A stretch of DNA of 64,000 nucleotides, taken from IMG/VR virus record IMGVR_UViG_3300032007_000002. One strand, written 5' to 3'. The position numbers and the translations under genes are program-made. Each line of letters begins with the position of its first letter. Positions within the stretch are counted from its first letter, which is position 1. Positions 29,900 through 63,504 of this stretch are shown one piece after another. This DNA comes from a virus (Duplodnaviria > Heunggongvirae > Uroviricota > Caudoviricetes). The notes under the pieces were generated by a model, which made no database searches, was not told the origin of the DNA, and saw only the letters and a program-made list of their open reading frames with translations.

Positions 29900-30815
29900 C
29901 TGTTGCGTAGTGTAAGCGGAATTTCAAAAAATTTCCCACGGCACCGGCAGGACGCCGACACCGGGCAGCACGAAATATAGCAAATATCTCCCCCGCAGGG
30001 ACGGACAGCTTGCCGGGTACTTGCAGGGTGCTTGTCGGGTGGCTGCCGGGTGCGCGGGGAGGAAAATTGAAAAATTTCCGGCCGCCCGGCCCGCCAGGGC
30101 CGCGGCGGCCACCAAGTTCGGTCGCTGGCTCGGGACTCGGAAGATCGATCCCTGGCTCGGGACTCGCCTTGGACCCCTCCAGATGGCGATTTTGAAGCGT
30201 AAAGGGCATGTTTGCCGGAGGCAAGGGGCGTTTTGAAGTCGGAAAAAGGCCGTTCTAGGATGGAAATAAAAACGGAAAGTTAAATGTGCGCGTGTCCGTA
30301 TGAGCACTTGTGCACTTCTGGACCACTGCACCCCCGTGCACCGGCACCCCGCTCCGCGGGACTGGCACTGCACAACTGGGCACCCTCCGGGCCACGACTT
30401 CGCCAGCCCTCCGGGGGACGCCTTCGGGAGGTCTTCCCACGGTGTTGATAGGGCGTTGACAGTGTTGATACGGCTTCGGGGGTGTTGATAAGTCGTCGAG
30501 AAGGCGTTGAGAGGTCCGTGAGACGGATGTGAGACGGCCGTTGTACGGAGTTGACAGAGCAGTCTCGCGGAGCGCCGGTTGAGAAGGGTGTCCCGGAGGG
30601 GTGGGGCGGAGCCCTATGTGACGTGGGGAGGGTGTGGGGAGGTTTCCCGTGATTCCGGCGGAGCCGGGAAGACGTGGGAAGGGGTCCCCCATGTGACGGG
30701 GGATCGGTCGGGAGGGAGTTCCCGTGATTCCGACGGGGTTGTTGGGGTCGGATTTGGGGGAGGTTTACATGTGACGGGGGGAGGGTCGGGAAGGAGTTCC
30801 CGTGATTCCCCTGCC
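29900..30815. other. non-coding repeat-rich region (candidate origin or genome-end junction)
   Basis: no credible ORF; 15-bp direct repeat, GCAC and GTTGA arrays, three empty copies of the bipartite element; strand bias flips. Confidence 0.55.
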
Positions 30816-30816
30816 C

Positions 30817-31041
30817 CTACTTCTTCTTGGACGGGGGGAGTTTGCAGAGGATGTCCATGACACCCTTGTAAGTCCGGTCGAGCTCCCTGGTCTTGAGGTC
30901 CAGGTTACGGCGGAGCCGGACGATGTATTCGGCGAGGTCCCTGGGTGTCTGTGTCTCGAGCTGGGCGAGGGACATGGAGTCCATGTCGGGGCCGGTGAAC
31001 TTCTGGGCGAGCCAGTTTCCTAGTTTCGTGAATCCTTCCAT
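30817..31041 (-). CDS. hypothetical protein
   Basis: 74 aa, AAGGA SD. Confidence 0.6.
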   Translation of the reverse strand: MEGFTKLGNWLAQKFTGPDMDSMSLAQLETQTPRDLAEYIVRLRRNLDLKTRELDRTYKGVMDILCKLPPSKKK

Positions 31042-31102
31042 AGGGTTCCTTTCATTTGAAAAGGGGCCCGGCGATGCCGGGCCCCGATAATGTAGAAACA
31101 GT

Positions 31103-31531
31103 TTAGGGATCTGTCAACAGCGGGGGTTCCTTGTGGAACTGCTTTATCGTGATCGGGGAGAAGCGTTCCCCCAGTCTGAGGGCTGCGCACTCCGTACAGA
31201 AGGGGAGGCGCCATCCGCCCCTGGTTTCGAGTTCGGGGGTCTTTCCGCATGAGCAGCAGTGGTCCCAGGAGTCCCTCCACGCTGCGAGGGCGAGTTCGGA
31301 GATTTCCGGTCGGAGGTGATCGGGGACGTTTCGGAGGTCGGGAACGAGAAGAAGCCGTCCGAGGTATTCACGGACGGCTGCGATCTTGGTTTCCGGGGAG
31401 ATTTCCGCTGCCCTGGCGCAGAAGGAGTCGAACAGTTCCTTCCAGCCGTCGGGGACGTCGTCCCGGAACGATTTCCCGTCGGGGCGGGCGGCTATCTCGG
31501 GATACGGAGTTTTGTTCCGCATTTGGGGCAC
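31103..31531 (-). CDS. hypothetical phage protein with C-terminal Zn finger
   Basis: VPDGW...VREYLGRL...CCSCG...GW...CTEC. Confidence 0.65.
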   Translation of the reverse strand: MPQMRNKTPYPEIAARPDGKSFRDDVPDGWKELFDSFCARAAEISPETKIAAVREYLGRLLLVPDLRNVPDHLRPEISELALAAWRDSWDHCCSCGKTPELETRGGWRLPFCTECAALRLGERFSPITIKQFHKEPPLLTDP

Positions 31532-31701
31532 CGGAGGATGGTTTCCTTCAGTCGGGCGATTTCCTCGTCCTTGGCCTTCAGCTGTTCCTTGAGGGCCTGG
31601 ACCTGCTGCTCTTTGGCGATGTCGGCGATGGTCGGCTTCTTGGGGCCGCCGAAGATGCCGTTGCCGCCGAAGATGTCGTTGAAGTTGAACTGGTCTGGCA
31701 T
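31492..31701 (-). CDS. small coiled-coil/Zn-ribbon protein
   Basis: MPDQF start, CPKCG. Confidence 0.55.
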   Translation of the reverse strand: MPDQFNFNDIFGGNGIFGGPKKPTIADIAKEQQVQALKEQLKAKDEEIARLKETILRCPKCGTKLRIPR

Positions 31702-31702
31702 T

Positions 31703-32164
31703 TTACTTCTTCCTGATGATTGCGACGCCGAGGATGGGGCCGTACTTTTCGAAGACGCCGGGAAACTGGGCGCGGAGGCGGTCGTATTCGGACGGCTGCT
31801 GCTGACGGGATTTCCAGCTGCGGATGAACTCTTCGATGGCGGGGATGAAGTCGCCGCAGTCGATGGCGGCCTTGGCACGTTCGGTGTTGAGGTCGAGGCC
31901 GAACATGCGCTTGAAGTTGCCTGCGAAGTCGCGGGAGAGTTCTTCTTCGGCCTTCTTGGGATCGGGCTGGGCCTGTTCGGGCTGTGCCTGTTCCTTGTGG
32001 TCGAGGTTCATCTGGTGGACCGCGGTGCGGAGGGTGTTGACTTCGGTTTCGAGGGCTTCGATCTGTTTAGCCTGCGCTGCGTTGGCGAGCTTGAGCGTCT
32101 CGTTCTCGCGGACGAGGGCGTCAATCTTGTCGAGCATCTGTTTCGTGATTTCGTTGTTTTCCAT
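31703..32164 (-). CDS. coiled-coil hypothetical protein
   Basis: 153 aa, GAGGTG SD. Confidence 0.65.
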   Translation of the reverse strand: MENNEITKQMLDKIDALVRENETLKLANAAQAKQIEALETEVNTLRTAVHQMNLDHKEQAQPEQAQPDPKKAEEELSRDFAGNFKRMFGLDLNTERAKAAIDCGDFIPAIEEFIRSWKSRQQQPSEYDRLRAQFPGVFEKYGPILGVAIIRKK

Positions 32165-32397
32165 AGGTACACCTCAAAAGTTAAAAATTGTTTACGACAT
32201 ACCATGCGGTCTTGTAGCAGACGTAGATCCAGTTGAGCGCCGTGTGGACGATCGCCCAGGGCCACGAGTGGTTGAACACCCACGACATCGAGAAGGCTGC
32301 GAGGGCGCCTACCATCCCGGTGAAGAGGCATCCGCATGGGAACCGGATTGTAAATCCGGGTTTACGTTCCTGCTGTGAAATATAGCAATTTCGGGGG

Positions 32398-32598
32398 TCA
32401 GTCGGCTGGGTAGCCGTGTTCCCGGCAGATTCTCTGGACTGCATCCTTGATCTCCTGCGCCGTAGCGACGTCCATGTTGTGGATAGTGTTTAGGAAGCCG
32501 ATCCCGATGTGGTCGACGGTGGTGAGTTCCACGCAGTCGTCACCGTCGCCGTATTTTTCGTTAGCGCGTTCGCGGAGTTCGCTTGCTGTATCGCACAT
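32398..32598 (-). CDS. hypothetical protein
   Basis: 66 aa, AGGAGA SD. Confidence 0.55.
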   Translation of the reverse strand: MCDTASELRERANEKYGDGDDCVELTTVDHIGIGFLNTIHNMDVATAQEIKDAVQRICREHGYPAD

Positions 32599-32640
32599 TG
32601 TAAAATTCTCCTGGTTTTTTTGGAAAAATTGAAAAAAAAT

Positions 32641-32838
32641 CTAGCGCCGGATTTCGGGTGGCGCCTTAAAACTAGGTTTCTCGACCGTCACGCCGTCCTT
32701 CGGCGCCTTGAAATCTAGCAAAATTTCGTGGGAGGGCGCCTCGATGGCGGATTCCGCCACCATGGCGACGCCGAGGGTGAACAGGAAGATCAGCGCCGCT
32801 GCCATGGCGATGATGCTGATGGCTCTGGCTCCGCTCAT
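32641..32838 (-). CDS. small membrane protein
   Basis: N-terminal TM helix, ATGA-coupled. Confidence 0.5.
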   Translation of the reverse strand: MSGARAISIIAMAAALIFLFTLGVAMVAESAIEAPSHEILLDFKAPKDGVTVEKPSFKAPPEIRR

Positions 32839-33359
32839 TTTCCGTTCACCAGCTTGTAGGCGATGTCGTTCGCCACCCTCGTGAGGATGTTGCCGAGTTC
32901 GTTCTTGCCCTTCCACTTCGCCGGGTCGCCGATGTCGGGGTCGTCGAGGTTCATTCCGATTCCCCAGTAGGTGTCGGTCAGGGACGCTTCGACGAGGGTA
33001 ATCCCGTCGGAGACGAGCATGACCAGCTTGTTGGCGAGGAAGACGTTGCCTTCGTACTTTTCCCGGACGGCGAGGCGCATCGTGGGGCTCTTGACCTTGT
33101 CCCAGGACTTCGCGTCGAAGTTCCTCACCCGGTTGCCGAGGAGGAGGCACGTCTGTGGGTCCTTGGTATGGAGGATGAGGTCGGCCATTTCCATGTCGCG
33201 GAAGTACCGGGCCTTGTCCAGCTGGTATGCCTGCTCGGATGTGTAGCATACCACGTCTTCCGGGGACGGGCCGAACGGGGTGTGGTGGACGAACTCGGAC
33301 TGGTGGAAGTTGGCGACCCAGTCCTTGTAGAAGAAGGTGTACTTGCCGAGTGTTTTCAT
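32835..33359 (-). CDS. NADAR family protein (YbiA / T4 gp30.3-like)
   Basis: TSEQAYQxxKA, LGxxVRNFD..W, LVEAS..DxxWGIG, WKGKNELG. Confidence 0.9.
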   Translation of the reverse strand: MKTLGKYTFFYKDWVANFHQSEFVHHTPFGPSPEDVVCYTSEQAYQLDKARYFRDMEMADLILHTKDPQTCLLLGNRVRNFDAKSWDKVKSPTMRLAVREKYEGNVFLANKLVMLVSDGITLVEASLTDTYWGIGMNLDDPDIGDPAKWKGKNELGNILTRVANDIAYKLVNGK

Positions 33360-33850
33360 TTCTTGCATCCTTCCCTGATTTCTGTCCAGGGGAACTTGAG
33401 GCGGTAGTCTAGCTGCCGGAGGTAGTTGGGGAGCTGTCTGAGGGATTCCCCGGAGTGCTTGAGCGTCTGGTCGATGATGTGGCAGGGGGAGCCGTAGAAG
33501 TCCCTCATGTCGTGCCCGTCGTGGAAGTAGATGCCGCCGAGGACCTGGCCGCCGTAGACGAAGAGGACGTCCTTGCACTCGCGCATGTTGCCGAGGTCGA
33601 TGGCGGGTTCCCCGTTGCGCTTGCGCTCGTACTGGCAGTGGAGGTAGGAATACTTCCCTGCGGAGAGGACGGGCTCGGCCTGGGATAGGCGCCACGTGGT
33701 GACGGAGGGGCAGTTGCCCTGGGCGTCGGCCGTGATTCCGATGTCGGTCCCGGCGTAGAGGCAGGCGGGGCCGTCGGGTACCCCGGGGAGGGATCCGGCG
33801 GCGAAGGCGATGGCCGCGAGGGCGAGGGCTAGGCATGTGACAGTGCGCAT
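33356..33850 (-). CDS. secreted hypothetical protein
   Basis: signal peptide MRTVTCLALALAAIAFA. Confidence 0.65.
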   Translation of the reverse strand: MRTVTCLALALAAIAFAAGSLPGVPDGPACLYAGTDIGITADAQGNCPSVTTWRLSQAEPVLSAGKYSYLHCQYERKRNGEPAIDLGNMRECKDVLFVYGGQVLGGIYFHDGHDMRDFYGSPCHIIDQTLKHSGESLRQLPNYLRQLDYRLKFPWTEIREGCKK

Positions 33851-34098: not shown

Positions 34099-34173
34099 AT
34101 ATAACAAAATTTAAAAAATTGGCCGGACCGGCGGTGCCGGTCCGGTGCCGAGTTTGGAGCAAAATTGGGAAAA

Positions 34174-34914
34174 TTAAAGAATTTCTTCGGCGGTTTCCAT
34201 GAGGACGGTGCGGTTGCGCATCTTGGTGACCACCGTCTTGGTGACCCTGCGGATGTAGGCGGTGGAGTTCCCGGTGCGGGATGCGTAGTCCGCGGCGGAG
34301 TTCCAGTCCGGGGAGAGCATGGCGTCGAAGAGCTGGCGTTCCGCGTCGTTTTCGAGGGCTGCGTCTGCCTGTTCCTTGAGGATGCTGCGGACGCGGTGGA
34401 GGTCGATGTCGTCGGCGATGTCGGACGCGTCGTCGTGGTTGAGGAGGATGTCCATGACCGGGGCGTTCGGGCGCTTTTCCTGTTCGGATCCGGGTGCGGC
34501 GAAGGCGACGGCGGTGACGGTCTCCCCTGCGCGGAGGCGGTTTTCCGGCCAGTGCACGAGGTTGTCGGCGAAGATGGCCTTGTTCAGCGCGTTGAAGATG
34601 CGGGCGTTGAAGAAGGTGATGAAGCGGGTGCCCTCTTTGAGGTCGAAGTCCTGGATTGCTGCCGGGAGGTGGAGCATGACTTCGGAGACGAGTTCGCCGT
34701 AGTCGCCCTTGAAGCGGCGGTAGCGCGGGTTGCTCGTCGCCACGCGGACGATGGTCGGGTAGCAGAGGCCGGCGATGAGGCGGAGGGCCTCGGAGGAACC
34801 CTGGCGGGCGAGGAGGATGTACTGGACTTCGGTGTCGCGGTTGGGGATGGCGGCCTTCGCGGCCTTGTATTCGCGGTCCATGTCTGCGAAGAATTTTGTG
34901 CTGAACAGTGACAT
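34174..34914 (-). CDS. divergent sigma70-family RNA polymerase sigma factor-like protein
   Basis: region-2-like ARQGSSEA..L...ELVSEVMLHLPAAIQDFDLKEGTRFITF...RI; possible C-terminal HTH (AADYASRTGNSTAYIRRV). Confidence 0.7.
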   Translation of the reverse strand: MSLFSTKFFADMDREYKAAKAAIPNRDTEVQYILLARQGSSEALRLIAGLCYPTIVRVATSNPRYRRFKGDYGELVSEVMLHLPAAIQDFDLKEGTRFITFFNARIFNALNKAIFADNLVHWPENRLRAGETVTAVAFAAPGSEQEKRPNAPVMDILLNHDDASDIADDIDLHRVRSILKEQADAALENDAERQLFDAMLSPDWNSAADYASRTGNSTAYIRRVTKTVVTKMRNRTVLMETAEEIL

Positions 34915-34973
34915 AGTTTTTTGCTCCGTGGCTACGATGTTGTCTTGGTTCGTATGGAAAAATAAAAAATTTT

Positions 34974-36434
34974 TTATGCGATGAGTTTGAGCGCCCTCGC
35001 CGCGGCCATGATTTCGGCCTCGTTACGGGTGTCCGCGAGGAGTTTCCCCGCGAGGCCGAGGTTCACCATGGCGGGGGCGTCCTTCGCCCAGGACGGGATG
35101 CCGTTGATGGTCGGCGCGAACGGCTCGGCGAAGTTCACGTCGAGGAAGTTCCCCGCGTCCTCGTAGTCCATGCGGTCGGCCTTCGCGGCCAGGGCGAGGA
35201 TCGCTTCGAGTTCCCGGTCGGTGAGGAGGCACCCGTGGAGGCGGCGGAGGGACCCGTCGTTCCCCACGATCATGTCGCCGTAGCCGAGGAGCTTCTCCGC
35301 CCCGCCGTAGCCGAGGATGGTCATGGAGTCCGTGGCCGATGCGACCTTGAACGCGATGCGGGTGGGGATGTTGCACTTGAGGTCGCCCGTCACCACCTTG
35401 GTCGAGGGGCGCTGGGTGGCGAGGACGAGGTGGATGCCGACGGCGCGGGCCTTCTGCGCGATGCGCATGACGAACGCGGTCAGCTCGGCGGAGGCGGTCA
35501 TCATGAGGTCGGCGAACTCGTCAACCACCGCGACCACGTAGGGCATCTTCCTGCGCTGTCCTGCCGGAATTGTAAAAATTTTTTCACAGTTCTCGACGGC
35601 GGCGTTGAAGTCCTTGATGTTTCGGAAGCCGAGTTCCGCGAGGACGGAATAGCGGTATTCCATGAGGGAGACGAGCCACCCGATCGAGAGCACGGCCTCC
35701 ATGGGGTCCGTGATGGCCCTGCCGTTGATTACGTTGGGGAGGGCCTCGTAGGGTTTCAGTTCCACCTGCTTCGGGTCGATGAGGAGGAAGCGCACCATGT
35801 CCGTCGGCATGGAGAGATAGACCGAGGAAATGATGGAGTTGATGCAGACGGACTTGCCGGAGCCGGTCTGTCCCGCGACGAGCATGTGCGGCGCCTTGGC
35901 GAGGTCGATGCGGACGGGGTTGCCCACCGGGTCCACGCCGACGACCGCGGGGATTGCCATGTCTGCGCAGGGGGAGTTGAAGATGTTTCCGAACGGGACC
36001 ACCTTGCGGTCCTTGACCGGGATGCTGATGGAGCAGCAGCGGGTCTTTTGGAGTCCGGTGTAGGGGTCGGTGGACGGGAAGTAGTCGTTGCCGTTCACCT
36101 CGATGGATGCGCAGTCGAGGTCCCTGGCGAGGTCCTTGGCGATCGCTTCGAGGGCGGAAGCCTTCGTGCCCGGCTTCAAGTGCATGAAGATCTTGGAGAT
36201 GACCGGGCCGGACTGGGAACCCGCGACGGTGCAGGCCACTCCGTATGCGGAGCACACCTTTTCCACGCCACTCGCACGGGCATCCTGGCCCACGGTGAAC
36301 GCGGTGGACGTGAAGGCGGGGGCCTTCGGCTTGCGTTCGGCGCGGCCGCGGTAGGAGAAGTAGTCAGCGAACGGGGCCGCGACCGGGTTGGTTGCCACGC
36401 GGAGGAGTTCGACTGTCTTTTTGGAAATTGCCAT
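34974..36434 (-). CDS. FtsK/SpoIIIE-like DNA translocase motor (no TM or gamma domain recognised)
   Basis: alpha domain GPVIS..PGTK; PHMLVAGQTGSGKS, LIDPK, VVDEFADL, ARAVGIHLVLATQRP, AEKLLGYGDM. Confidence 0.9.
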   Translation of the reverse strand: MAISKKTVELLRVATNPVAAPFADYFSYRGRAERKPKAPAFTSTAFTVGQDARASGVEKVCSAYGVACTVAGSQSGPVISKIFMHLKPGTKASALEAIAKDLARDLDCASIEVNGNDYFPSTDPYTGLQKTRCCSISIPVKDRKVVPFGNIFNSPCADMAIPAVVGVDPVGNPVRIDLAKAPHMLVAGQTGSGKSVCINSIISSVYLSMPTDMVRFLLIDPKQVELKPYEALPNVINGRAITDPMEAVLSIGWLVSLMEYRYSVLAELGFRNIKDFNAAVENCEKIFTIPAGQRRKMPYVVAVVDEFADLMMTASAELTAFVMRIAQKARAVGIHLVLATQRPSTKVVTGDLKCNIPTRIAFKVASATDSMTILGYGGAEKLLGYGDMIVGNDGSLRRLHGCLLTDRELEAILALAAKADRMDYEDAGNFLDVNFAEPFAPTINGIPSWAKDAPAMVNLGLAGKLLADTRNEAEIMAAARALKLIA

Positions 36435-36464
36435 TGTTTCTTCCTTTTGGATGTTCGTGCTATG

Positions 36465-37106
36465 TTACTTGGAGGCGGCTTCCGCCATCTGTTCCCGTGA
36501 TTCCGCCTGGTTGATCTTCTCGAACACGGAGGCGTATTCACCGCGGGAGACCACGACAGAGTCGCGGAGGCGGAACCCTACCAGGCGCCCGGCCTGGTCC
36601 ATGTACTTCGCGACCTGGATGTCGGTGTCGGACGGGGTGGCGATGCCCTGCGGGTGGTTGTGGACGATGTAGAAGGACGAGGCGTCCACGGAGGAGAGGA
36701 AGCTCCATACTGTGTGGACGGGGACCCCGGTGCCGGAGGCGGTGCCGAGGGACACTTCGCGGATGGCGAGGATCCTGCGGGCGCCGTCGAGGGCGATGAT
36801 GTACTGCGACTCGATGTTGCGGTACTTGAGGCGGGCCATCACCGCGGCGACTTCCCTGGCTCCCGTGAGGCGGAGGCCGACCGGGTCCAGGAGGAAGGTG
36901 CCGGACATCCTGATGAGCGCACGCACGACTTCGAGCTCGGAACCGGAGAACACTTCGTCCGGCGGGACCGGGTTGCTGCCACGGAGGTAGCCGACTACGC
37001 GCGAGTAGAACGCGATGCCGTAGGGACGGCATAGCACTTCCACGGCGGAGAGGTCCGCGGCGTTGTCTTCTTCGAGGTTTCCCATGTACTGTGCGAGGTA
37101 GCTCAT
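36465..37106 (-). CDS. RadC-like JAB-domain protein
   Basis: VSLGT...HNHPQGIATPSDTD...RDSVVV. Confidence 0.85.
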   Translation of the reverse strand: MSYLAQYMGNLEEDNAADLSAVEVLCRPYGIAFYSRVVGYLRGSNPVPPDEVFSGSELEVVRALIRMSGTFLLDPVGLRLTGAREVAAVMARLKYRNIESQYIIALDGARRILAIREVSLGTASGTGVPVHTVWSFLSSVDASSFYIVHNHPQGIATPSDTDIQVAKYMDQAGRLVGFRLRDSVVVSRGEYASVFEKINQAESREQMAEAASK

Positions 37107-37215
37107 TTTCTTGTCTCCTTTGTAGCCCTGCTATGTGATCGCCGGGGAGGGCGCCCGGGTGTCTCCCGTGATTCCGTCGGGTATAAACTGTAGCCGTATC
37201 TCCCCAGGGAACGAC

Positions 37216-38344: not shown

Positions 38345-38532
38345 CTTTAACTCCTGCCGGGACGGGTTCCCAGAGAACTGTCAGTTCGGCCTTGACCCCT
38401 TCCGGCGTGATGTCGAAAGCGTCCTTGAAGCTGTCGACAATCCCGGCGGGAACGAGGCCGAGCACGGGGTCGTAGTGCTCGACCAGGAACTTGCAGCGTC
38501 TCATGGGGCGCCTCCGTGAAATTTAGCAAAAA

Positions 38533-38688: not shown

Positions 38689-38910
38689 GGTGCCTCCTTT
38701 TGGCTGTCCCGGCTATGTGACGGCCGGGGGTGTCTGCAGGGGGTTCCCCGTGATTCCGGTCAGCGGTGGCCGAAGAAGAACCCGGCGACCATGCCGAGGC
38801 CGATCAGCATCAGCACGATCTTGAATATGAGGTCGTCGAGGGAGAAGTCTTTGTTATGTTTCCGCATATAGGGAAATATAACAAATTTTCTCCTCAACCT
38901 TACGAAAAAC

Positions 38911-39093: not shown

Positions 39094-39102
39094 GGTCGCA
39101 TC

Positions 39103-39417: not shown

Positions 39418-39501
39418 GTTAGGTCTCCTTGTTGCTGGTCCCTGTATGTTACGGAGGGGGCGCCTGGGGTGGCGCCTCCCGTGATTCCGGCGGATAGCCC
39501 G

Positions 39502-39834: not shown

Positions 39835-39844
39835 GAAAAATCCT

Positions 39845-40648: not shown

Positions 40649-40726
40649 GGTGTCTCCTTTTCTGATATTCCCCGTATATGACGGAGGGGACCCGTGAGGA
40701 TCCCCTTCCCGTGATTCCGTTGATAG

Positions 40727-40798
40727 TACACCCGTCCGGACTCGAACCGGAATTATCGGCTTCGGGGGCCGATGTGCTATCCATTGCACTACGGATGC
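40727..40798 (-). tRNA. tRNA-Arg(CCG)
   Basis: GCATCCG...TCGGC-CCCCGAA-GCCGA...TTCGAGT...CGGGTGT-A; C at position 33. Confidence 0.88.
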
Positions 40799-41359: not shown

Positions 41360-41374
41360 ATATGTTGGGGGTAG

Positions 41375-41448
41375 TAGCGCATACCGGGGTCGAACCGGTG
41401 ATTTTCGGAATGAGAATCCGCTGTCCTGGGCCTCTAGACGAATGCGCC
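41375..41448 (-). tRNA. tRNA-Glu(CTC)
   Basis: GGCGCAT...GCGGA-TTCTCAT-TCCGA...TTCGACC...ATGCGCT-A. Confidence 0.88.
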
Positions 41449-42423: not shown

Positions 42424-42435
42424 ACATATAGTTTA

Positions 42436-42511
42436 TAGCGGGAGCGGGACTCGAACCCGCAACAACTCACGGGTTATGGGCCCGGCGAGCTACCAGTTGC
42501 TCCATCCCGCG
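42436..42511 (-). tRNA. tRNA-Met(CAT), initiator type
   Basis: C1:T72 mismatch, GGG/CCC anticodon stem, loop CC-CAT-AA. Confidence 0.88.
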
Positions 42512-42555
42512 ATAAACTACATGGCGAACTATCGCTAACTGAAATATAGCAAAGT

Positions 42556-43301: not shown

Positions 43302-43391
43302 CTGATGTCTCCTTTTGATAACCCGTGTATGTTACGGGCGGGGTGCCCGGGGAGGCGCCTCCCGTGATTCCGTTGGCCCGGAATTTGAAAA

Positions 43392-44164: not shown

Positions 44165-44239
44165 TGCTGTCTCCTTTTGTTTTGATGCTCCCCTTATGTG
44201 ATGGCAGGGCGCCTGGGGGAGGCGCCTCCCGTGATTCCG

Positions 44240-45102: not shown

Positions 45103-45174
45103 GCCGTTGTCTCCTTTTGATGTTCCCTCTATGTGATCGGCTGGCGCCTGGGGGAGGTGCCTCCCGTGATTCCG

Positions 45175-46176: not shown

Positions 46177-46249
46177 GATGTTGTCTCCTTTTGATGGTCC
46201 CTCTATGTGACCTGGGTGGCGCCTGGGGTAGGCGCCTCCCGTGATTCCG

Positions 46250-46582: not shown

Positions 46583-46656
46583 GCTGTTGTCTCCTTTTCG
46601 TTGTTCCCTCTATGTGACGGAGGGAGGCGCCCGCCTCCCCCGTTCCCGTGATTCCG

Positions 46657-47427: not shown

Positions 47428-47570
47428 TTGCTGTCTCCCTATTAACGTTGACGCCCCCTCTATGTTACTGAGGGGGCGGGCTGTTTAGGTGGTCCCGTGA
47501 TTCCGGGCGAGGCGCTGGGTGTTTGGGTGTTATATTTCGAGAATACGCCGCCCGGCCTGTCGCGGGTGTA

Positions 47571-48377: not shown

Positions 48378-48407
48378 TGTCTGTCTCCTTTCGATGTCCC
48401 TTATATG

Positions 48408-48689
48408 TTACGTGAGAGGCGCCCCCGGAAGCGTCACCCGTGATTCCGCCGGGGCTGCCGCTGTCGCGCGGGGGATCTTGTCCAGGGGGACCACCTTCGT
48501 GTCGGGGTCGTACCAGGGTGTTTCCGGGAACTTCTCGAACTCGTCCTGGGTGTAGATGAACCCGTAGTCCCTCCCCCTGCGTTCCCGGACCATGCGTTCG
48601 GCCTCGGTGAAGGAAGGCGCCTCCACCCTGGCGAGGGTTGACATGGGGATTTGCGGGTCGTTCGCGGCGAAGGATACGTAGAAGTTCAT
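48408..48689 (-). CDS. hypothetical protein (reads through the element)
   Basis: stop TAA lies within the GTAACAT box. Confidence 0.6.
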   Translation of the reverse strand: MNFYVSFAANDPQIPMSTLARVEAPSFTEAERMVRERRGRDYGFIYTQDEFEKFPETPWYDPDTKVVPLDKIPRATAAAPAESRVTLPGAPLT

Positions 48690-49724: not shown

Positions 49725-49824
49725 GTTGTCTCCTTTTCTTGGTGCTCCCTCTATGTGACCGGGGAGGGATAAAAGGGGGCGCCTCCCGTGATTCCGCAGG
49801 CGCCCCCGGATTTTCAAAAATTTT

Positions 49825-50436: not shown

Positions 50437-50514
50437 GGTGTTGTCTCCTTTTGATGCTCTCTGTATGTGATCGGCGGGGGCGCCTCCGGGGAGGCTCCCC
50501 GTGATTCCGTCGGC

Positions 50515-51216: not shown

Positions 51217-51353
51217 GTTGTTATCTCCTTTTGATACTCTCTGTATGTGATCGGCGGGGCGCCTCCGGGGGCGTTCCCCGTGATTCCGCCGCGCCCGGAT
51301 CCGAAAAAACTCCCCGGCGGGGGTTACCCGCCAGGGAGGGGAGACATTAGATT

Positions 51354-52778: not shown

Positions 52779-52952
52779 TGTGTGTCTCCTTTTGATATGC
52801 CGTCTATGTGACGGCGGGTGGCGCCTGGGTCACCCTCTCCCGTGATTCCGTAAGGGGAAAGACCCCCGCCCGTCCCCCGTTCAGTGTGTGTTGTGGTAAA
52901 CTGTGTCGGGGGGATTGGAACGCGGAGGGAGGCCGCGTGGGCGGGGGAAATA

Positions 52953-53465: not shown

Positions 53466-53536
53466 CGTGTCTCCTTTTGATACCCGGACTATGTGATCGG
53501 GGTGGCGCCTGGGGTGGCGCCTCCCGTGATTCCGCC

Positions 53537-54573: not shown

Positions 54574-54597
54574 TCTTGTCTCCTTTTGATGCGCACC

Positions 54598-55068
54598 TTA
54601 TGTGAAGTCCACGGTGTCGTGGACCTCCGGGTCCGTGATTCCCTTGGGCATCTTGACCTTGATGAGGTCGTATTCGCGGCGGGAGGTGTAGTTCTCCCAT
54701 CCGTTGTTCGGGGTCTCGATATACGGGTAGCCGAGGGACTTCAGGCGCTTGACATCTTCGTGCAGGTCTTTCAGCTGTTCGTGGTCGAGGTGGTGGAGGT
54801 GCTTGGGGTTCCACTTCTTGTAGAAGCCCACGAAGGAACATCCGCGACCGTTGGCCTTGGCCTCGTCGTTGGCGATGGCGAGCGCGGTTTCCTGGCACTG
54901 GCCTCCGTGGGAGGTCCCGCGGTGGTTCGGCCAGAACACATGGGCCGCGGTGGAGAAATACGGCTTATCGTTGTCGCCGCAGCGGTAGTAGTCGATCGTG
55001 AGGGTCGCATCCTTGGAAATCTTGAAGCAGATGCAAAATTCTTTTTTCTTGTAGCAGATGTTTGCCAT
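54598..55068 (-). CDS. hypothetical phage protein (reads through the element)
   Basis: YFST...GGQCQE...WNPKHLH; stop at the ACATAA box. Confidence 0.75.
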   Translation of the reverse strand: MANICYKKKEFCICFKISKDATLTIDYYRCGDNDKPYFSTAAHVFWPNHRGTSHGGQCQETALAIANDEAKANGRGCSFVGFYKKWNPKHLHHLDHEQLKDLHEDVKRLKSLGYPYIETPNNGWENYTSRREYDLIKVKMPKGITDPEVHDTVDFT

Positions 55069-55140
55069 GTCGGTATCTCCTTTTGATGGTCTCTCTATGT
55101 TATCGCCCCGTGGGCGGGTTTTGTAAACCCCGTGATTCCG

Positions 55141-55581: not shown

Positions 55582-55664
55582 AATCGAATCTCCTTTTGAT
55601 ATGCCGTATATGTGAAGAGGGGGACCCGATTGGATCCCCCTCCCGTGATTCCGTCACGTTGTCC

Positions 55665-56462
55665 CTAGCGGCGTACCGCGACCGGGATTTCGTCCCAAAG
55701 GGCGAAGATTTCGCCGTCGGCGCCCCTTCTGCGCATTTCGCCCATGGTGCAGGGCGGCGGGTTCACGAAGAGGTTCACCGCGTCGGTCATCGCCTGCGGT
55801 TCAGTTCCGGGGGTGAACGAGAAACGCTTGAGGCGGTCGGGGTTCTGCTCGTCGTAGTGCTTTGACTTGATGAGGGACGAGAAGTATTCCTGGCCGAGGT
55901 CGTTCTTGACCACGGGGCCGCCGAGGTCGAACACGTTGGTCCCGTTCTTGTCGATGTAGCGCGGGCCTTCGCCTGGGGGTTGGATGAGCACGGAGTCCTG
56001 GTCGTACTTCCCGCACATTTCCTTCGCGAACTGTTCCATCTTGGACCATTCCACGGGCTTGCCGTCGCGGTAATGCGCGGGGATGACGAAGGAGGTTTCG
56101 CCGTTCGCAGTCTTCGGCGGGTTGGTCTGCATGTCGCGGTAGCCGCCATAGACCACGATGTAGGAAAGCCCCTGGGCCTTGATGTCGGCGAGAAGCTCAT
56201 GGCGCTTTTGGTAGTTTTCCGCTTCCGAGCGTTCGACTCGGTCCGCAGAGAGGATAATCATGCCGTCCTTGCCGTGTTGGATGATGCGGTCGACGGTCGC
56301 TTCGGTGAGCGGTTGGAGCCTTGAATGGTTGGATTCGTAACCGTACATGGCCATCGGTTCGCGGTCGCGCACACTTTCGATATACGCGGAAAGTTCCTGG
56401 CCCATGTCGGGGTGGGCGCCCATCATGCGCACCCTTGCGTTAAGTTCGTTTGCTGTGGACAT
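55665..56462 (-). CDS. conserved phage protein
   Basis: LTEATVDRIIQH...ILSADR...VYGGY...ETSFVI...KYDQDSVL; three motif types upstream. Confidence 0.75.
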   Translation of the reverse strand: MSTANELNARVRMMGAHPDMGQELSAYIESVRDREPMAMYGYESNHSRLQPLTEATVDRIIQHGKDGMIILSADRVERSEAENYQKRHELLADIKAQGLSYIVVYGGYRDMQTNPPKTANGETSFVIPAHYRDGKPVEWSKMEQFAKEMCGKYDQDSVLIQPPGEGPRYIDKNGTNVFDLGGPVVKNDLGQEYFSSLIKSKHYDEQNPDRLKRFSFTPGTEPQAMTDAVNLFVNPPPCTMGEMRRRGADGEIFALWDEIPVAVRR

Positions 56463-56585
56463 ATATGTTAATCCTCTGATTTCAATAGTTTATATCGTCC
56501 GGCACTGAAATATAGCAACTTCCGGTAGCCACCGTATGTGACCGGGGTGGCGCCTCGGGTGGCGCCTCCCGTGATTCCGACGGGC

Positions 56586-57008: not shown

Positions 57009-57155
57009 GGGGTATCTCCTTTTTACATCCGCCCTATGTGACCGGGGAGGGCGCCCGGATCCCCTTCCCCGTGATTCCGTCACGGATCACGAAAAAACTG
57101 TCACGAAAAGCGTACACTTTCCGTGACAGAGAAGGAGATACGAAAATCAAAAAAT

Positions 57156-57740: not shown

Positions 57741-57832
57741 TGGGATGTCTCCTTTCGATATGCCTCTTATGTTACCCCCGGAGGGGAGGGGCGGGAGGCG
57801 CCCCGTGATTCCGTCAGCCCTGGGGTCCGCCC

Positions 57833-58105: not shown

Positions 58106-58191
58106 TGGGTGTCTCCTTTTCTTGATGTGCCCTCTATGTTATCGCCGGGATCGGGGGATTTGTAAACCCCCGTGATTCCGTAGGCGCCACC

Positions 58192-59007: not shown

Positions 59008-59092
59008 TTCGTGTCTCCTTTCGATATGCCCTCTATGTTACGGGGAGGGCGCCTCCAGGGAGGCTACCCGTGATTCCGTTGGGGCTTTAACA

Positions 59093-59563: not shown

Positions 59564-59639
59564 TTCGTGTCTCCTTTTCGATATTCCCCCTATGTTACGG
59601 GGAGGGCGCCTCCGGGGAGGCTACCCGTGATTCCGGGTG

Positions 59640-60344: not shown

Positions 60345-60420
60345 GTCGTATCTCCTTTCGATATGCCCTCTATGTGAAGAGGGAGGCGCCTTTACACGCC
60401 TCCCCCGTGATTCCGGCGGC

Positions 60421-60480
60421 TTACCCGAACACCAGGACGGCGAACGCGATAAGGGCCAGTATCAGTTGCAGGGTTGCCAT
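60421..60480 (-). CDS. 19-aa hydrophobic micropeptide MATLQLILALIAFAVLVFG
   Basis: AAGGAGG SD 5 nt upstream of the ATG; fills the gap before the next element. Confidence 0.6.
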   Translation of the reverse strand: MATLQLILALIAFAVLVFG

Positions 60481-60497
60481 TTGGCCTCCTTACGGGC

Positions 60498-60992
60498 CTA
60501 CTTGGACCCGTCCCATGCGGCGAGCTTGAGTCTGTAGTTCGAGGCATCGTCGCAGTCGAAGTCCGTCATGTTCCCGGCCTCATCGCGGTAGTGGACATGG
60601 GTTTCCACATAGACAAAGGGGTCCGTGATGGTGGAACCGTCTTCGTCGATGGTGCAGACGGTGGCGTAAAGGCCGCAGTTCTTGTCATCCGGCCCGTACA
60701 GATAGAGGTCGAAGATGTTGAGGTCGAAGTCCAGGCCGTCCGCCTTGAAGCCAACCCAGGTGTCCTCGAAGTCCGGGGTCTCGTTGGCCTTGTATCTGTA
60801 ATCCGCCTCGGTGTCCGTGTTGATTTCCGCCTTGATGCCCGTCTTGCGGTCGGAGAGTTCGAGGCGGTATTCGTCGCGTTTGCCCTTGCGGGTCTTGTAG
60901 ATATGCAGGACCGGGTCCTGGAAGATGCGCTTGAGGTCATCCACATCGCTCGGATGAATTTCGATGTTGTCAACCTTGGTAGTCTTTGCCAT
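60498..60992 (-). CDS. hypothetical acidic protein
   Basis: element plus RBS. Confidence 0.75.
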   Translation of the reverse strand: MAKTTKVDNIEIHPSDVDDLKRIFQDPVLHIYKTRKGKRDEYRLELSDRKTGIKAEINTDTEADYRYKANETPDFEDTWVGFKADGLDFDLNIFDLYLYGPDDKNCGLYATVCTIDEDGSTITDPFVYVETHVHYRDEAGNMTDFDCDDASNYRLKLAAWDGSK

Positions 60993-61063
60993 ATTAGTGT
61001 CTCCTTTTGATATGCCCTCTATGTGAAAAGGGAGGGCGCCTCCTACGCCTCCCCCGTGATTCC

Positions 61064-61543
61064 CTAGCCGATGCGCTTCGGCCATGCGTAGAGGATTTGG
61101 TAGCAGGCGGGCGCCTTCTTCATCTTCCAAAGGTTCGCGTTCACACCGAAAACGATGGGCTTGCCCGTGTTGCCGTCGATAAATGAAATATTTTTCTCGT
61201 CAACCCCGACGGACTCATTCGCGCCGTTCTCGTTAATCCAAAGGATTTCCATGTTGAAATGGTGGTCCTCGACGGTTTGGCAGCTTTCGTCGTTGTCGAA
61301 GTTGATTGCCAACGGGTAGCCGTCGTAGATGAAGTACACCCATGCGTCGAAAAGATCGACACTGCGGTCGGTGAACTGCGCGGAGACGCTGTCCCCGTTC
61401 TTCAACGTGATGGTCGCCACGTAGAACGCCTTGGTGACCTTGTCTCCCGTCTTGGTGTAGAACTTGCGGATGGCGACCTTCGCCCCCTTGAACTTCTCCA
61501 CCACCTTTTCCATGATTTCCGGTGTAATCTTTGTCTTTGCCAT
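61064..61543 (-). CDS. hypothetical protein
   Basis: retains only the RBS half of the leader; stop abuts the next element. Confidence 0.75.
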   Translation of the reverse strand: MAKTKITPEIMEKVVEKFKGAKVAIRKFYTKTGDKVTKAFYVATITLKNGDSVSAQFTDRSVDLFDAWVYFIYDGYPLAINFDNDESCQTVEDHHFNMEILWINENGANESVGVDEKNISFIDGNTGKPIVFGVNANLWKMKKAPACYQILYAWPKRIG

Positions 61544-61569
61544 GTTGGTATCTCCTTTTGATATGCCCT

Positions 61570-61676
61570 TGACGGTTATTGGCGTAAGTGTTATATTTAG
61601 ACTATGCTCGACCTAATTAGTTACTGATTAGTGACAGCGTGAGGTTCAGTTTTGCTCATACGGATGCCTTGTTCAT
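61570..61676 (-). pseudogene. truncated cassette remnant (MNKASV*)
   Basis: full element plus RBS leads to an ATG with a stop after 6 codons, then AT-rich filler and a half leader. Confidence 0.5.
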
Positions 61677-61762
61677 TTGTGTCTCCTTGTTGATATTCCC
61701 CCTATGTGAACGGGGGAGGCGCCTTTTACACCTCCCCCGTGATTCCAGGAGATACAAATTTT

Positions 61763-62131
61763 TTATCTGACGAAGCTCTCGGCACCCTCGAAGAGCGGGA
61801 TGCAGATGCTTTCGTGGTTGTCATCGTCCGGCAAATCGACAAAATCGACGATTTTCAAAGAAATCCTGCCCTTAATGTAGTAGAACATGCTGTCGAAGTT
61901 GTTCGGTTCGTGCGGCCACTTGGGATCGTCGACCTTCTTCATTACATCGTTCACGATGTCGAGGGCCGCCCAGAGCCGTGCGACGGGAACCTTCAGCAGT
62001 TCGAGGTCGGCTTCGGTCTTGGGGTAGTCGTAGATGTAGAACATGGCGGAAAGGGCCTTCGCAAGCGCTTCCGAGAAAGAAGTGAAGTCGTTGTCGCCGA
62101 TGCGGACGACGAGGTAGGGTGCCTTGGACAT
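61763..62131 (-). CDS. hypothetical protein
   Basis: TAATG-coupled to the upstream gene. Confidence 0.7.
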   Translation of the reverse strand: MSKAPYLVVRIGDNDFTSFSEALAKALSAMFYIYDYPKTEADLELLKVPVARLWAALDIVNDVMKKVDDPKWPHEPNNFDSMFYYIKGRISLKIVDFVDLPDDDNHESICIPLFEGAESFVR

Positions 62132-62337
62132 TATTCCACCTCCACGTTGAGGGTGAGGACCATCGTGGGTTCGGTCAGGTTGTCCACGGACTGGATTTCG
62201 AGGTCTTGGTAGTCGCCCGGGAGGTTATCGCGGGTGCCGCGGAAAACTTCCTTGTTGGTCTTGAGGTCGTAGAGCGCAAATTCCTGTGTGTCGGAGTCTG
62301 CGAAGATGTCGAAAAAATCGTAAACAGTTTGGTTCAT
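62131..62337 (-). CDS. small acidic hypothetical protein
   Basis: element plus RBS. Confidence 0.7.
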   Translation of the reverse strand: MNQTVYDFFDIFADSDTQEFALYDLKTNKEVFRGTRDNLPGDYQDLEIQSVDNLTEPTMVLTLNVEVE

Positions 62338-62452
62338 GTTGTGTCTCCTTTTTGATGTTCCCCCTATGTTACGGGGAGGGCGCCTCCGGGGAGGCTACCC
62401 GTGATTCCGTCGGGCTATCTTACCCTTGCCAAGGGTCGCCGGGCTGAAATAC

Positions 62453-62944
62453 TTATGCCGTCTCCGAGAGGAAGAAGCCAGGGACGATCGGTTCGCGGTT
62501 CGCGTCGCGCCTGCCCTTGAGGTAGTAGCGCTTGCGATTGAACAGCACATACTGGTTGCCGTCGTCGGTTTCCAGGTCCCCCTTCGTGAGGCACTCCTTG
62601 AGCTGGATGCTGTCTCCGACGAGGAGCTTGCCGTAGGGGATGGCGTGGCGGTTGCCGAACATGGGCTGCACCCAGTAGATGACCTTCATGACGGCGGGCT
62701 TGATGTCGAACGCCAGGCGCACCGCGTCGTGGTAGTTCACATCCTTGGCCCATTCCTGGCATTGTTGCAGGCAATACTGCCGGTAGGACTTGCGTTCGTC
62801 CTCGTCCTTGCACTTGGCGAGCTGCGAACGGATCCATTCGAGGTAGGCCTTGACCTTCGCCTTGTTGTGGGCGACGGTGTTCTTCCCGTTGGAAGGCTTC
62901 GCATTGGCGAAGGGCTTGGCGCCGATGTGGTGAAGTGTGCTCAT
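62453..62944 (-). CDS. hypothetical protein
   Basis: element plus RBS. Confidence 0.75.
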   Translation of the reverse strand: MSTLHHIGAKPFANAKPSNGKNTVAHNKAKVKAYLEWIRSQLAKCKDEDERKSYRQYCLQQCQEWAKDVNYHDAVRLAFDIKPAVMKVIYWVQPMFGNRHAIPYGKLLVGDSIQLKECLTKGDLETDDGNQYVLFNRKRYYLKGRRDANREPIVPGFFLSETA

Positions 62945-63021
62945 GTCGTGTCTCCTTTCGATATTCCCCCTATGTTACGGGGAGGGAGCCTCCGGGGAGG
63001 CCACCCGTGATTCCGTCGGCC

Positions 63022-63429
63022 CTATCGGATGAGGCCGAGGTGCCCTGCTTGTCCCTTGGAGTTGAAGCGCCATTCGATGCGGTAGCCCTTGCGCCTGACC
63101 TCTTCGAGGGCCGTGTCGATTTCGTTCTCCGTCGGGCTGAACCATTCGTCGATGTTCGGGTAGATTGCGGGGTTCCTGGCATGGGCCTCCCTGCAATAGT
63201 CCATGTTGCTCTTGCAACCGATTCCGCAGGTGTAGGTGGAGCAGAACCCGCGCAGTACGCCGTCCTTGTCCGGCGACGCCCCGCAACAGATATGGTTGAA
63301 GTGGCGGCTGTAGGTTTCCTCCTTCTTGGAGAGGACGAAGGAAGCGACGAGCATCTTCACGTGCTTGTCGAAGGTTGCCTTTTCGGCGGTTTCGTTGAAA
63401 TTGGGTACTTCGGGAACTTCGTATGCCAT
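63022..63429 (-). CDS. hypothetical protein
   Basis: flanked by elements. Confidence 0.75.
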   Translation of the reverse strand: MAYEVPEVPNFNETAEKATFDKHVKMLVASFVLSKKEETYSRHFNHICCGASPDKDGVLRGFCSTYTCGIGCKSNMDYCREAHARNPAIYPNIDEWFSPTENEIDTALEEVRRKGYRIEWRFNSKGQAGHLGLIR

Positions 63430-63504
63430 GTTGTATCTCCTTTTGATATGCCCTCTATGTTACGGGGAGGGCGCCTCCGGGGAGGCTTCCCGTGATTCCG
63501 GCGG

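Follow-up and report, generated by a model that had tools for sequence, protein, structure and literature searches.

The window analysed here was a stretch of 64,000 nucleotides from a large rumen phage, which is uncultivated and high in GC. A control element of approximately 72 bases preceded nearly every gene of a 33-kb block of this window, and the block was composed of small unknown genes and anti-defence genes. Thirty-five copies of the element were identified, all of which were co-oriented on the minus strand. Each copy contained two boxes, namely, box 1 (GGAATCACGGG) and box 2 (TMACATA), which were separated by 25 nt in 26 copies (N25), by 26 nt in six copies (N26) and by 23 nt in three copies (N23). 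These figures were identical to those of the initial annotation for copy number, orientation and spacing. The boxes were invariant across the 35 copies, and the spacer and flanks varied. With up to two mismatches allowed, the box 1 12-mer had 45 matches in the window versus 10.0 ± 3.2 in shuffled sequences, and the exact 12-mer was found on the minus strand in 29 of 29 matches, from 30646 to 63500. A 36th match to box 1, at 33740, was located inside an ORF without box 2; it probably arose by chance and was excluded. In 31 of the 35 copies, box 2 was followed by a Shine–Dalgarno (SD) sequence at ~58 nt and an ATG at 69–78 nt, both counted from the start of box 1. In the logo of the 31 aligned gene-heading copies, box 1 had 11 invariant positions and box 2 read T-M-ACATA. 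An invariant G followed 12 nt past the first base of box 2, and positions +16 to +18 were ATC. Of the 30 cases that could be scored, 18 had a box 1 that started no more than 19 nt past the upstream stop codon. The initial annotation had placed the element frequently right after this stop, which was correct for five copies (44239, 45174, 46249, 46656 and 55140), and box 1 of the copy at 61064 shared one base with the stop.

The units headed by the elements contained one gene in 19 cases, two genes in nine and 3, 3, 4 and 12 genes in the remaining four; all coordinates below refer to the minus strand. Single genes were headed by N25 elements at 63430..63500 (135 aa), 62945..63015 (163 aa), 60993..61064 (164 aa), 60345..60415 (234 aa), 59564..59635 (156 aa), 59008..59078 (271 aa), 57009..57079 (140 aa), 55582..55653 (146 aa), 55069..55140 (156 aa), 53466..53534 (170 aa), 51217..51288 (233 aa) and 37107..37176 (a RadC-like JAB gene, 213 aa) and by N26 elements at 58106..58180 (90 aa), 57741..57813 (194 aa), 52779..52850 (474 aa), 50437..50509 (203 aa) and 46583..46656 (110 aa). 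The ATG of the N25 element at 61677..61747 opened a mini-ORF of six codons; the long gene that follows it (159 aa) began at 61543. In the hybrid copy at 56535..56579, box 1, N25 and box 2 were present, and the usual leader was replaced by a second promoter-like motif of class II (extended −10-like, 56505..56516) ahead of a gene of the S-adenosylmethionine (SAM) lyase family, anti-restriction type (265 aa, 55665..56462). Pairs of genes followed the N25 elements at 62338..62409 (68 and 122 aa), 54574..54643 (200 and 136 aa), 49725..49796 (320 and 93 aa), 48378..48448 (170 and 93 aa), 47428..47505 (142 and 109 aa), 45103..45174 (143 and 142 aa), 44165..44239 (93 and 133 aa) and 40649..40719 (267 and 110 aa) and the N26 element at 46177..46249 (219 and 105 aa). 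The copy at 54574..54643 had two mismatches in the 12-mer and overlapped the upstream ORF at its 3′ end, with the stop of that ORF inside box 2, and the copy at 40649..40719 began 6 nt past a tRNA-Arg. Larger units were headed by the N25 elements at 43302..43372 (four genes), 39418..39489 (three small genes), 38689..38758 (three genes) and 36435..36505 (12 genes). The last of these units included an FtsK/SpoIIIE-family ATPase (486 aa, 34974..36434; PF01580, E 2e-50), a sigma70-family factor (246 aa, 34174..34914; profile matches to RpoS/SigA/RpoH, E down to 1.5e-29) and a NADAR-domain gene (174 aa, 32835..33359). The array ended in three tandem, degenerate N23 copies without genes at 30768..30810, 30690..30732 and 30615..30657, all with C-rich spacers, and the third pointed into an ORF-free region of ~630 nt.

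Almost all genes behind the elements had been described as unrelated unknowns. No paralogues were found among the 59 array proteins at E ≤ 1e-4, and in the batch of 56 proteins from 30.8 to 63.4 kb, Pfam matches were limited to four. The content of the array (SAM lyase, NADAR, RadC and otherwise unknown genes) fits an early or anti-defence region.

The element was further compared among related phages; it was present in nine related metagenome loci, and homology breaks between relatives often fell at the elements. In the window and these nine loci, all 134 occurrences of the 7-mer core of box 1 were on the coding strand, with none on the opposite strand. Among 80 distinct copies from the same set, box 2 lay 36 nt from the core of box 1 in 55 copies, 37 nt in 19, 35 nt in 5 and 34 nt in 1. 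This spacing of 36 ± 1 nt was kept whatever the spacer, the GC content of which ranged from 21 to 90%, with a hairpin or none. Methylase, GmrSD and HNH genes found only in the relatives also carried the element. The boxes and N25 were kept in one relative (L012, sigma 57% identical), and another (L014, sigma 33% identical) retained the box 1 core, a gap of 25 nt and a box 2 of the TCAC type, also before its own sigma gene. A distantly related 253-kb IMG/VR phage (G001) had the same architecture, but the leader of its co-oriented array was different. At least five homologues of window genes stood in G001 behind the G001 leader and in a different order, and they were headed by the window type in the window. 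Hence, leader type follows lineage and not gene. Moreover, two window-type cassettes were embedded in the G001 array.

Of 220 ends of pairwise homology breaks, 133 (60%) were located within an element ± 15 nt, a zone that made up 7–13% (~10%) of the sequence; selection against events that disrupt genes, and not a preference of recombination, could account for part of this approximately six-fold clustering in intergenic DNA. A break recurred at the ATG of the element at 47428..47505 in four relatives. At the level of sequence, these comparisons show that related phages gain, lose and swap genes exactly at the elements.

The element is most likely a phage-specific promoter and leader. The fixed and invariant boxes, their restriction to one strand, the lack of visible alternative promoters and the upstream terminators argue indirectly for the promoter proposed in the initial annotation; promoter activity, the place where transcription starts and the factor that reads the boxes are all inferred. 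Sigma70-like sites were not in excess (10 versus 6.6 ± 2.5 expected), only three weak ones were on the coding strand, and no candidate promoter was seen over the stretch of at least 7 kb from 63500 to 56516. Intrinsic terminators with a T-run were located immediately upstream of at least two elements: one with a 14-bp stem (57098..57129) ended 19 nt before the box 1 at 57079, and one with a 12-bp stem (51310..51338) lay 22 nt upstream of the box 1 at 51288. A strong hairpin followed by TTTT was also present in the 106-nt gap upstream of the element at 43372. The genes behind at least two copies therefore need a fresh transcription start. Box 2 (T-M-ACAT) may act as a −10-like element, and transcription is predicted to start 5–9 nt past it, on the invariant G or a neighbouring base, which would produce a conserved leader of ~22 nt with a strong SD sequence. 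Box 1 would then be located at about −49 to −38, approximately one helical turn upstream of a −35 hexamer. This position suggests a phage-specific factor as the reader of box 1 instead of sigma region 4 in its standard geometry. In the known geometry of core RNA polymerase (RNAP), sigma regions 2 and 4 cannot bridge a gap of 25–26 bp such as that between the boxes. An activator or an unusual sigma/RNAP contact may read box 1. The GC-rich, often palindromic spacer would be dispensable for recognition and may damp read-through from the upstream gene. The sigma70-family factor at the array end (34174–34914) is a candidate reader of one phage promoter class. Its own gene is behind an element, which rules it out as the only initial reader, and its putative recognition helices did not track box type in the four lineages compared.

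An RNA-level role would also explain the hairpin-prone spacer. Long polycistronic RNAs would come from few promoters, and the boxes and hairpin would form a processing, stability or translation-enhancer site. The resulting monocistronic mRNAs would be protected by a hairpin at the 3′ end and would begin with a defined leader. The irregular duplex of ~20 bp recognized by RNase III in the T7 early genes offers a precedent, as it also places conserved hairpin-containing elements between the genes of a co-oriented early block; the T7 sites are defined by the duplex, whereas the present boxes are invariant and single-stranded and several copies have no hairpin. The mean folding energy of the spacer was −15.1 kcal/mol versus −9.1 kcal/mol for shuffles (mean z −2.4; −1.8 for the G001-type leader), and the position directly past a stop and ~25 nt before the SD sequence is typical of an intercistronic site. 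Furthermore, assembled contigs of RNA libraries holding the array run across several elements, which fits read-through or contaminating DNA as well. Against this explanation, some copies folded weakly: 8 of the 80 were weaker than −6 kcal/mol and 5 had AT-rich spacers, and boxes and spacing were intact in them. Such AT-rich, non-folding spacers occurred in three relatives (L004, L006 and L008) before an EcoRI-like methylase, GmrSD and other genes. These copies bore out the earlier view that the hairpin in the spacer is optional, and they point to a protein of fixed span that reads duplex DNA. Little pairing was found in the C-rich spacers of the three gene-less copies, the sense and antisense strands folded equally well without G-U asymmetry, no convincing covariation was detected in the element alignment, and most of box 1 was unpaired in the folds. 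With strong terminators directly ahead of at least two copies, the genes downstream would be starved of transcripts, and the array lacked a visible promoter over the first 7 kb or more. An RNA-level role is considered unlikely.

The array also resembles an integron, in which a dedicated recombinase would move cassettes at the elements and expression would come from elsewhere. The mostly single-gene units were unrelated and co-oriented, the repeated element between them was partly palindromic, and the breaks fell at it. The analogy with attC drawn in the initial annotation was nevertheless unsupported, and this explanation is highly improbable. No integrase or recombinase was among the 31 Pfam families with matches (E ≤ 0.001) in the 112 proteins of the window, and the boxes were not an inverted pair of core and inverse core. 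An attC site is a 3′ recombination site for IntI in promoterless cassettes, whereas the present element is a 5′ leader that each cassette carries for itself and that includes the SD sequence at a fixed distance from the ATG. The break ends were scattered over the element, between −12 and +89, without a single crossover point, the exact position being beyond the resolution of BLAST. A polar guide motif (KOPS/SRS-like) for the FtsK/SpoIIIE-like translocase would account for the absolute polarity of the box 1 core, and the gene for this motor is part of the array, with synteny between the two extending to L012 and L014. Such a motif would direct genome pumping, for example, to finish DNA entry once the array is inside. 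A guide of this type does not need box 2, SD and ATG at locked distances, G001 retained the architecture although its left box differed, and no match to the motif-reading gamma domain of FtsK was found in the array ATPase; this role is scarcely credible.

The promoter–leader reading was compared with known phage promoters. The three hairpin early promoters of N4, which have a stem of 5–7 bp centred near −12 and are used by a giant virion RNAP, are likewise phage-specific with an inverted repeat in the recognition region. The present palindrome is larger and dispensable, its centre lies ~25 nt ahead of the predicted start, and no gene for such a polymerase was found in the window. T4 middle promoters combine a MotA box near −30 with a −10 element through sigma appropriation by MotA/AsiA. 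They share with the present element a −10-type element, a phage-specific upstream box in place of the −35 and tens of copies, but the sequences are unrelated and the MotA box is 11–13 bp from the −10, compared with 25–26 bp here. These promoters appear as PmSLs in PMC4122927. The closest known elements are the promoter-early stem-loops (PeSLs) of the T4-type phages RB49/phi1, T4/PST and KVP40/nt-1, in which a sigma70-like promoter (−35, N17, −10) has a stem-loop upstream of the −35 (PMC2839356; PMC4122927). Both are short composite cassettes with a stem-loop that end in SD and ATG, recur in plastic regions ahead of small genes of mostly unknown function, include degraded copies, have a lineage-specific consensus and bound the indels and replacements between close relatives. 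The PeSL analogy thus held for behaviour, with breaks between relatives falling at the elements. The present element differs in geometry and scale, with two invariant boxes 25–26 bp apart, no sigma70 consensus match and an optional hairpin between the boxes. Its conservation is far stricter (11 invariant positions in 31 of 31 aligned gene-heading copies), its array, with 35 copies over 33 kb, is much denser and longer, and its host is an uncultivated, high-GC rumen phage.

On balance, the element is probably a compact, lineage-specific promoter and translation leader, the copies of which also serve as homology tracts for recombination. The latter function follows from ~70 nt of near-identical sequence before dozens of unrelated, co-oriented genes. 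The idea of a recombination socket was well supported by the clustering of breaks, the foreign genes that carry the element in relatives and the two window-type cassettes in G001. Unequal and inter-phage recombination at these tracts would add, delete and replace whole, expression-ready cassettes.

The copies of the element were extracted from the whole window and aligned. A 12-mer of box 1 had 29 exact matches, all on the - strand between 30646 and 63500, and 45 matches when up to two mismatches were allowed, compared with 10.0 ± 3.2 in shuffled sequences. The copy count of the initial annotation was reproduced exactly (35 copies, of which 26 had a gap of 25 nt, six of 26 nt and three of 23 nt), and its observation of the array was fully confirmed. 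The full order of box 1, gap, box 2, conserved stretch, Shine–Dalgarno (SD) sequence and ATG was present in 31 of the 35 copies, and in these the ATG was located 69–78 nt from the first base of box 1, by which each element is named. The logo of box 1 had 11 invariant positions (GGAATCACGGG), box 2 read T-M-ACATA, and the gap between them was 25–26 bp in 32 of the 35 window copies. In the logo downstream of box 2, position +12 from the box 2 start was an invariant G and positions +16 to +18 were ATC; an A-run and GGAG came next. Three copies on the - strand, 30810, 30732 and 30657, were gene-less, with a spacing of 75–78 nt and C-rich gaps. Copy 56579 had both boxes and then a second promoter-like motif in place of the usual leader, ahead of the SAM-lyase gene. 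A match at 33740, which was within an ORF and without box 2, was probably due to chance and was rejected as a further copy.

The element had been described as often following the upstream stop codon directly, and this was the case: box 1 started no more than 19 nt past the stop in 18 of 30 scorable cases, six of them within one base. Element 54643 was embedded in the upstream gene at its 3′ end (54598–54643, - strand), with the stop codon of that gene inside box 2. The units headed by the elements contained one gene in 19 cases, two genes in nine and more in four. The genes had also been called mutually unrelated and mostly unknown. Indeed, no array protein matched another at E ≤ 1e-4, and Pfam matches were obtained for only 4 of the 56 proteins in the 30.8–63.4 kb batch, namely SAM lyase, NADAR, RadC-like JAB and FtsK/SpoIIIE ATPase. 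The ATG of element 61747 opened an ORF of only six codons (61656–61676), and the next long gene was 130 nt on, at 61543; the mini-ORF may encode a leader peptide or be what is left of a decayed cassette.

The box spacing was evaluated in a pooled set of 80 distinct box 1-to-box 2 sequences from the window and nine loci. Measured from the box 1 core, box 2 was 36 nt away in 55 of them, 37 nt in 19, 35 nt in five and 34 nt in one, so that 79 of the 80 fell within 36 ± 1 nt start to start. In six sequences, moreover, all 134 occurrences of the box 1 7-mer core were on the coding strand. The hairpin tendency of the window spacers was real, with a mean MFE of −15.1 kcal/mol versus −9.1 kcal/mol in shuffles, and it was equal on both strands. 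The hairpin was positioned between the boxes, had no T-run and was missing from some copies. Covariation was not convincing: for a hairpin supplied by hand, pairing was 63.9%, versus 60.4% in the shuffled controls and 60.8% after a shift of −3. The element also headed genes restricted to some of the relatives (an EcoRI-like methylase, a GmrSD-like nuclease, an HNH gene and others), and several of these elements had AT-rich, non-folding gaps with 21–46% GC. Hence, conservation of the two boxes as a unit does not depend on the hairpin.

Boxes that stay invariant, evenly spaced and confined to one strand, with any content in the spacer, form the pattern expected from selection by a DNA-bound protein of fixed span. 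A promoter is the best explanation for the element, with its start site and its activity being predictions. Hairpin and T-run terminators on the - strand were located just upstream of box 1 in element 57079 (57129–57098) and element 51288 (51338–51310), and a hairpin followed by TTTT preceded element 43372 on the same strand. Such upstream terminators occurred where box 1 did not abut a stop codon. Because strong terminators are placed just upstream of these elements, the genes behind them need a fresh transcription start. With T-M-ACAT as the presumed −10, transcription would probably start at the invariant G (+12) and box 1 would lie at about −49 to −38, which is beyond the reach of sigma region 4 in the known holoenzyme geometry. 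Such a position would suit an activator, or some other contact with the polymerase, with its centre at about −43. To our knowledge, this box geometry matches no described bacterial or phage promoter class.

Public RNA data containing the array were also collected. Of the runs listed, 12 were recorded as RNA, and two sheep-gut metatranscriptomes contained 0.35–0.42 of the sampled words. The data were assembled contigs with one depth figure per contig, which permits no inference on starts, strand or level, and contig ends at the elements are expected from repeat-induced graph breaks. The SAM-lyase contigs of two runs ended 10–12 nt past box 2 and were the deepest of all; both runs came from one study, and these ends were not counted as evidence. 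Short-sided joints between distant cassettes in the RNA contigs were set aside as repeat artefacts.

A sigma70-family factor was encoded at 34174–34914 on the - strand, in the unit headed by element 36505. A profile of 17 relatives of this protein matched RpoS, SigA and RpoH with E-values down to 1.5e-29 over residues 26–240, and every top Foldseek match of the product was a sigma factor. Judged by profile and predicted fold, the product belongs to the sigma70 family, with regions 2 and 4 recognisable. Residues 130–169 were modelled with low confidence and are possibly a linker in place of region 3. The phage sigma may be the reader of this element class or of another class. In four lineages, the helices of regions 2.4 and 4.2 showed no sorting by box type other than that due to phylogeny. 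An AT-rich stretch of the AATTTTTTATTTTT type was found just upstream of the sigma gene in the window (34915–34973) and in L012, a related 156-kb contig (about 9950–10000), and similar stretches were present at 29918–29936 and 30061–30079 of the window.

The element was compared with the known systems that could account for such an array. Promoter-early stem-loops (PeSLs) of T4-type phages are composite regulatory cassettes that end with an SD sequence and ATG before ORFans, have a lineage-specific consensus, and bound indels and replacements (PMC4122927; also PMC2839356). The analogy with PeSLs made in the initial annotation held for behaviour and failed for promoter type. As in PeSLs, a repeated composite unit ending with an SD sequence and ATG stands ahead of small ORFan-type genes in a plastic region (31 copies), and the indels and replacements of close relatives are bounded by the elements. 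However, the sigma70-like early promoter of PeSLs (−35, approximately 17 bp, −10) was absent from the element logo, and a consensus scan of 44–64 kb gave no excess of such sites (10 on both strands versus 6.6 ± 2.5 expected), with only three weak sites on the coding strand. For the stem-loop, which in PeSLs is just upstream of the promoter and acts as a terminator, the comparison was mixed: the hairpin tendency of the element is real, but the optional hairpin is inside the unit, has no T-run and is missing from some copies, and separate terminators precede at least two copies. Two hexamers 16–18 bp apart define a sigma70-type promoter, in contrast to the 25–26 bp between the boxes of the element. 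A T7-type RNase III site would explain a folding spacer, but every such site is an extended irregular duplex, whereas 8 of the 80 distinct copies of the element folded weaker than −6 kcal/mol. The other suggested analogy, with integron attC arrays, had to be abandoned. An attC site is an inverse-core/core palindrome at the 3′ end of a promoterless cassette, whereas the element has non-inverted boxes and is located 5′ of the gene, carrying its own SD sequence; moreover, an integron has an IntI tyrosine recombinase with attI and Pc beside its array, whereas no integrase family was among the 31 Pfam families matched by 112 window proteins (E ≤ 0.001). The element was therefore classed as PeSL-like, with a non-canonical two-box architecture and exceptional density.

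The initial annotation had not recognised the sequence as a described element, and the database searches gave no match to a known repeat family. No Rfam family other than four tRNAs reached the gathering score in the window, and at a relaxed threshold only a chance-level t44 match was obtained in 29850–30900. A blastn search with 7.9 kb of the array gave no match in 50,697 phage records (INPHARED), the motif strings in the literature text were found only in unrelated primers or sequences, and no description of the motif was found in Rfam, INPHARED or the literature searched. In IMG/VR, the strict element pattern gave three single matches, which were probably due to chance. With the relaxed pattern, 88 stretches were retrieved, almost all of which had just one match and were regarded as chance, and the distant phage G001 was found in addition. 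A 474-aa cassette protein had no match in IMG/VR.

This protein had 13 relatives at 82–95% identity on metagenome contigs of up to 105 kb, and loci L004–L011 from those contigs had the same element ahead of orthologous genes. DNA nearly identical to the window was found in sheep and bovine gut runs. In L012, whose sigma was 57% identical to that of the window, both boxes were kept at a gap of 25 nt, and their flanks were relaxed. L014, with a sigma 33% identical, retained the core of box 1, a gap of 25 nt and a box 2 of the TCAC type, also ahead of its own sigma gene. Homology breaks were explored in all pairs among the window array, L004, L006, L008 and L010. The break ends were within an element ± 15 nt in 133 of 220 cases (28 of 44 for the window alone), and these stretches made up 7–13% of each sequence, or approximately 10%. 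The earlier proposal of gene shuffling at the elements is thus well supported. The "start" ends were at the first base of box 1 and the "end" ends at the ATG, indicating that the element is the tract common to unlike genes. In L004, element 62409 was joined to the gene of element 59078, and five cassettes were gone. All four relatives became different from the window at 47428, where the ATG behind element 47505 is located, and in L004, L008 and L010 a gene of 229–232 aa with its own element followed. The SAM-lyase cassette was absent from another related contig, P0012. The preference of breaks for the elements is a direct observation; recombination is what we infer as its cause, because selection against gene-breaking events would also drive breaks into intergenic DNA, which here is nearly all element. 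The L006 array contained an IS1595 transposase and TnpB/Cas12f-like genes at 1522–1998, 4432–5487 and 19820–21229, some on the opposite strand, beside the methylase and GmrSD cassettes.

The relaxed IMG/VR scan yielded G001, a 253-kb, 99%-complete record with a sigma of the same family as that of the window (21% identity). From about 10 to 57 kb, G001 had a co-oriented array of small genes, whose leaders were similar to the window element in length and layout and different in sequence. There were 27 candidate leaders, 17 by a strict pattern, and about two dozen were aligned. Their order was a left CCGTG box, a conserved GGTGG..CCCGG centre, a right CACANCGTA box, an A-rich stretch, an SD sequence and ATG; RNAalifold gave no consensus structure for them. 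At least five proteins behind G001 leaders were homologous to window proteins behind the window-type element (23–38% identity, with a different gene order). The presence of homologous genes behind different leaders indicates that the leader type tracks the phage lineage and not the gene. Two G001 cassettes, at 48.6 and 49.3 kb, had the window-type element instead of the G001 leader. Hence, cassettes with their leader can cross between lineages. No homologues of the genes in these two cassettes were found among the related loci compared, and neither the window nor its close relatives contained leaders of the G001 type. A search of G001 with PF00940 (T7-type RNAP) and PF07230 (T4 portal) gave no match, but the control families were equally silent, which makes this result uninformative. 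Within its cassette array, G001 had nine copies of a 36-nt repeat with a 65–66-nt period at 27846–28400 (about 8846–9400 of locus L107), in a CRISPR-like layout with spacers of about 30 nt.

The surroundings of the array were of phage type. The genes in the window included a DNA polymerase exonuclease subunit, an exonuclease, Thg1, a Nudix hydrolase, an SLT lysin and a weak scaffold match. Three of the four tRNA genes were interleaved with the cassette array, namely tRNA-Arg-CCG (40726–40798), tRNA-Glu-CTC (41374–41448) and tRNA-Met-CAT (42435–42512), and the fourth was tRNA-Arg-CCT (10984–11057). A second motif class, TTTTGCTATATTT(CAG), was extended −10-like without a −35 and is probably another promoter class of the phage. 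Its approximately 17 copies were on both strands ahead of genes with an SD sequence, one of them ahead of tRNA-Met, and were located mainly at 1–30 kb; within the array, it occurred only at 56516, 42550, 38527, 32719 and 32386. This motif was also present in L012 and L014. A further motif, AAACCTAGTTT, was found just before a gene start in the window (32660–32680) and in L012 (about 11755–11767). Directly downstream of the three gene-less tandem copies, an ORF-free region of about 630 nt (29990–30614, - strand) contained three iteron-like repeats with 20-nt spacing (30441–30499), several other short direct repeats and long-range inverted repeats (30350–30364 with 30560–30574), and a matching gene-free gap was seen in the gene table of a relative. 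This region could encode a non-coding RNA or act as an origin activated by transcription. At the boundary of the array and the region of the second motif class, 26000–30000 had 63% GC and a GC skew of −0.14 to −0.17, opposite in sign to the rest of the window.

A broader reading, which we put forward tentatively and regard as rather unlikely in full, is that a clade of large rumen and gut phages has its own promoter architecture for an early/anti-defence block. The two boxes, 25–26 bp apart and approximately one helical turn beyond the sigma70 geometry, would be read by a phage-supplied protein, possibly together with the array sigma, and the cassettes would be a mobile pool exchanged within and between lineages with different leaders. 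If this were true, the array would amount to an integron counterpart for phage counter-defence genes, one that carries promoters and works without a recombinase. The element itself is a precise, searchable flag for the starts of dozens of expression units in an uncultivated phage. Almost all array genes are unknown, and their neighbours SAM lyase, NADAR and RadC are of known anti-restriction or anti-defence types, which makes the array a catalogue of candidate counter-defence genes. Moreover, the evidence for shuffling is unusually clear, with breaks at the elements, newly acquired genes carrying their leader and cross-lineage cassettes, and it takes the PeSL idea, that regulatory repeats drive modular shuffling, far outside the T4-type isolates from enterobacteria and vibrios for which PeSLs were described. 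The reader of the two-box geometry, once identified, could reveal a new mode of RNA polymerase recruitment.
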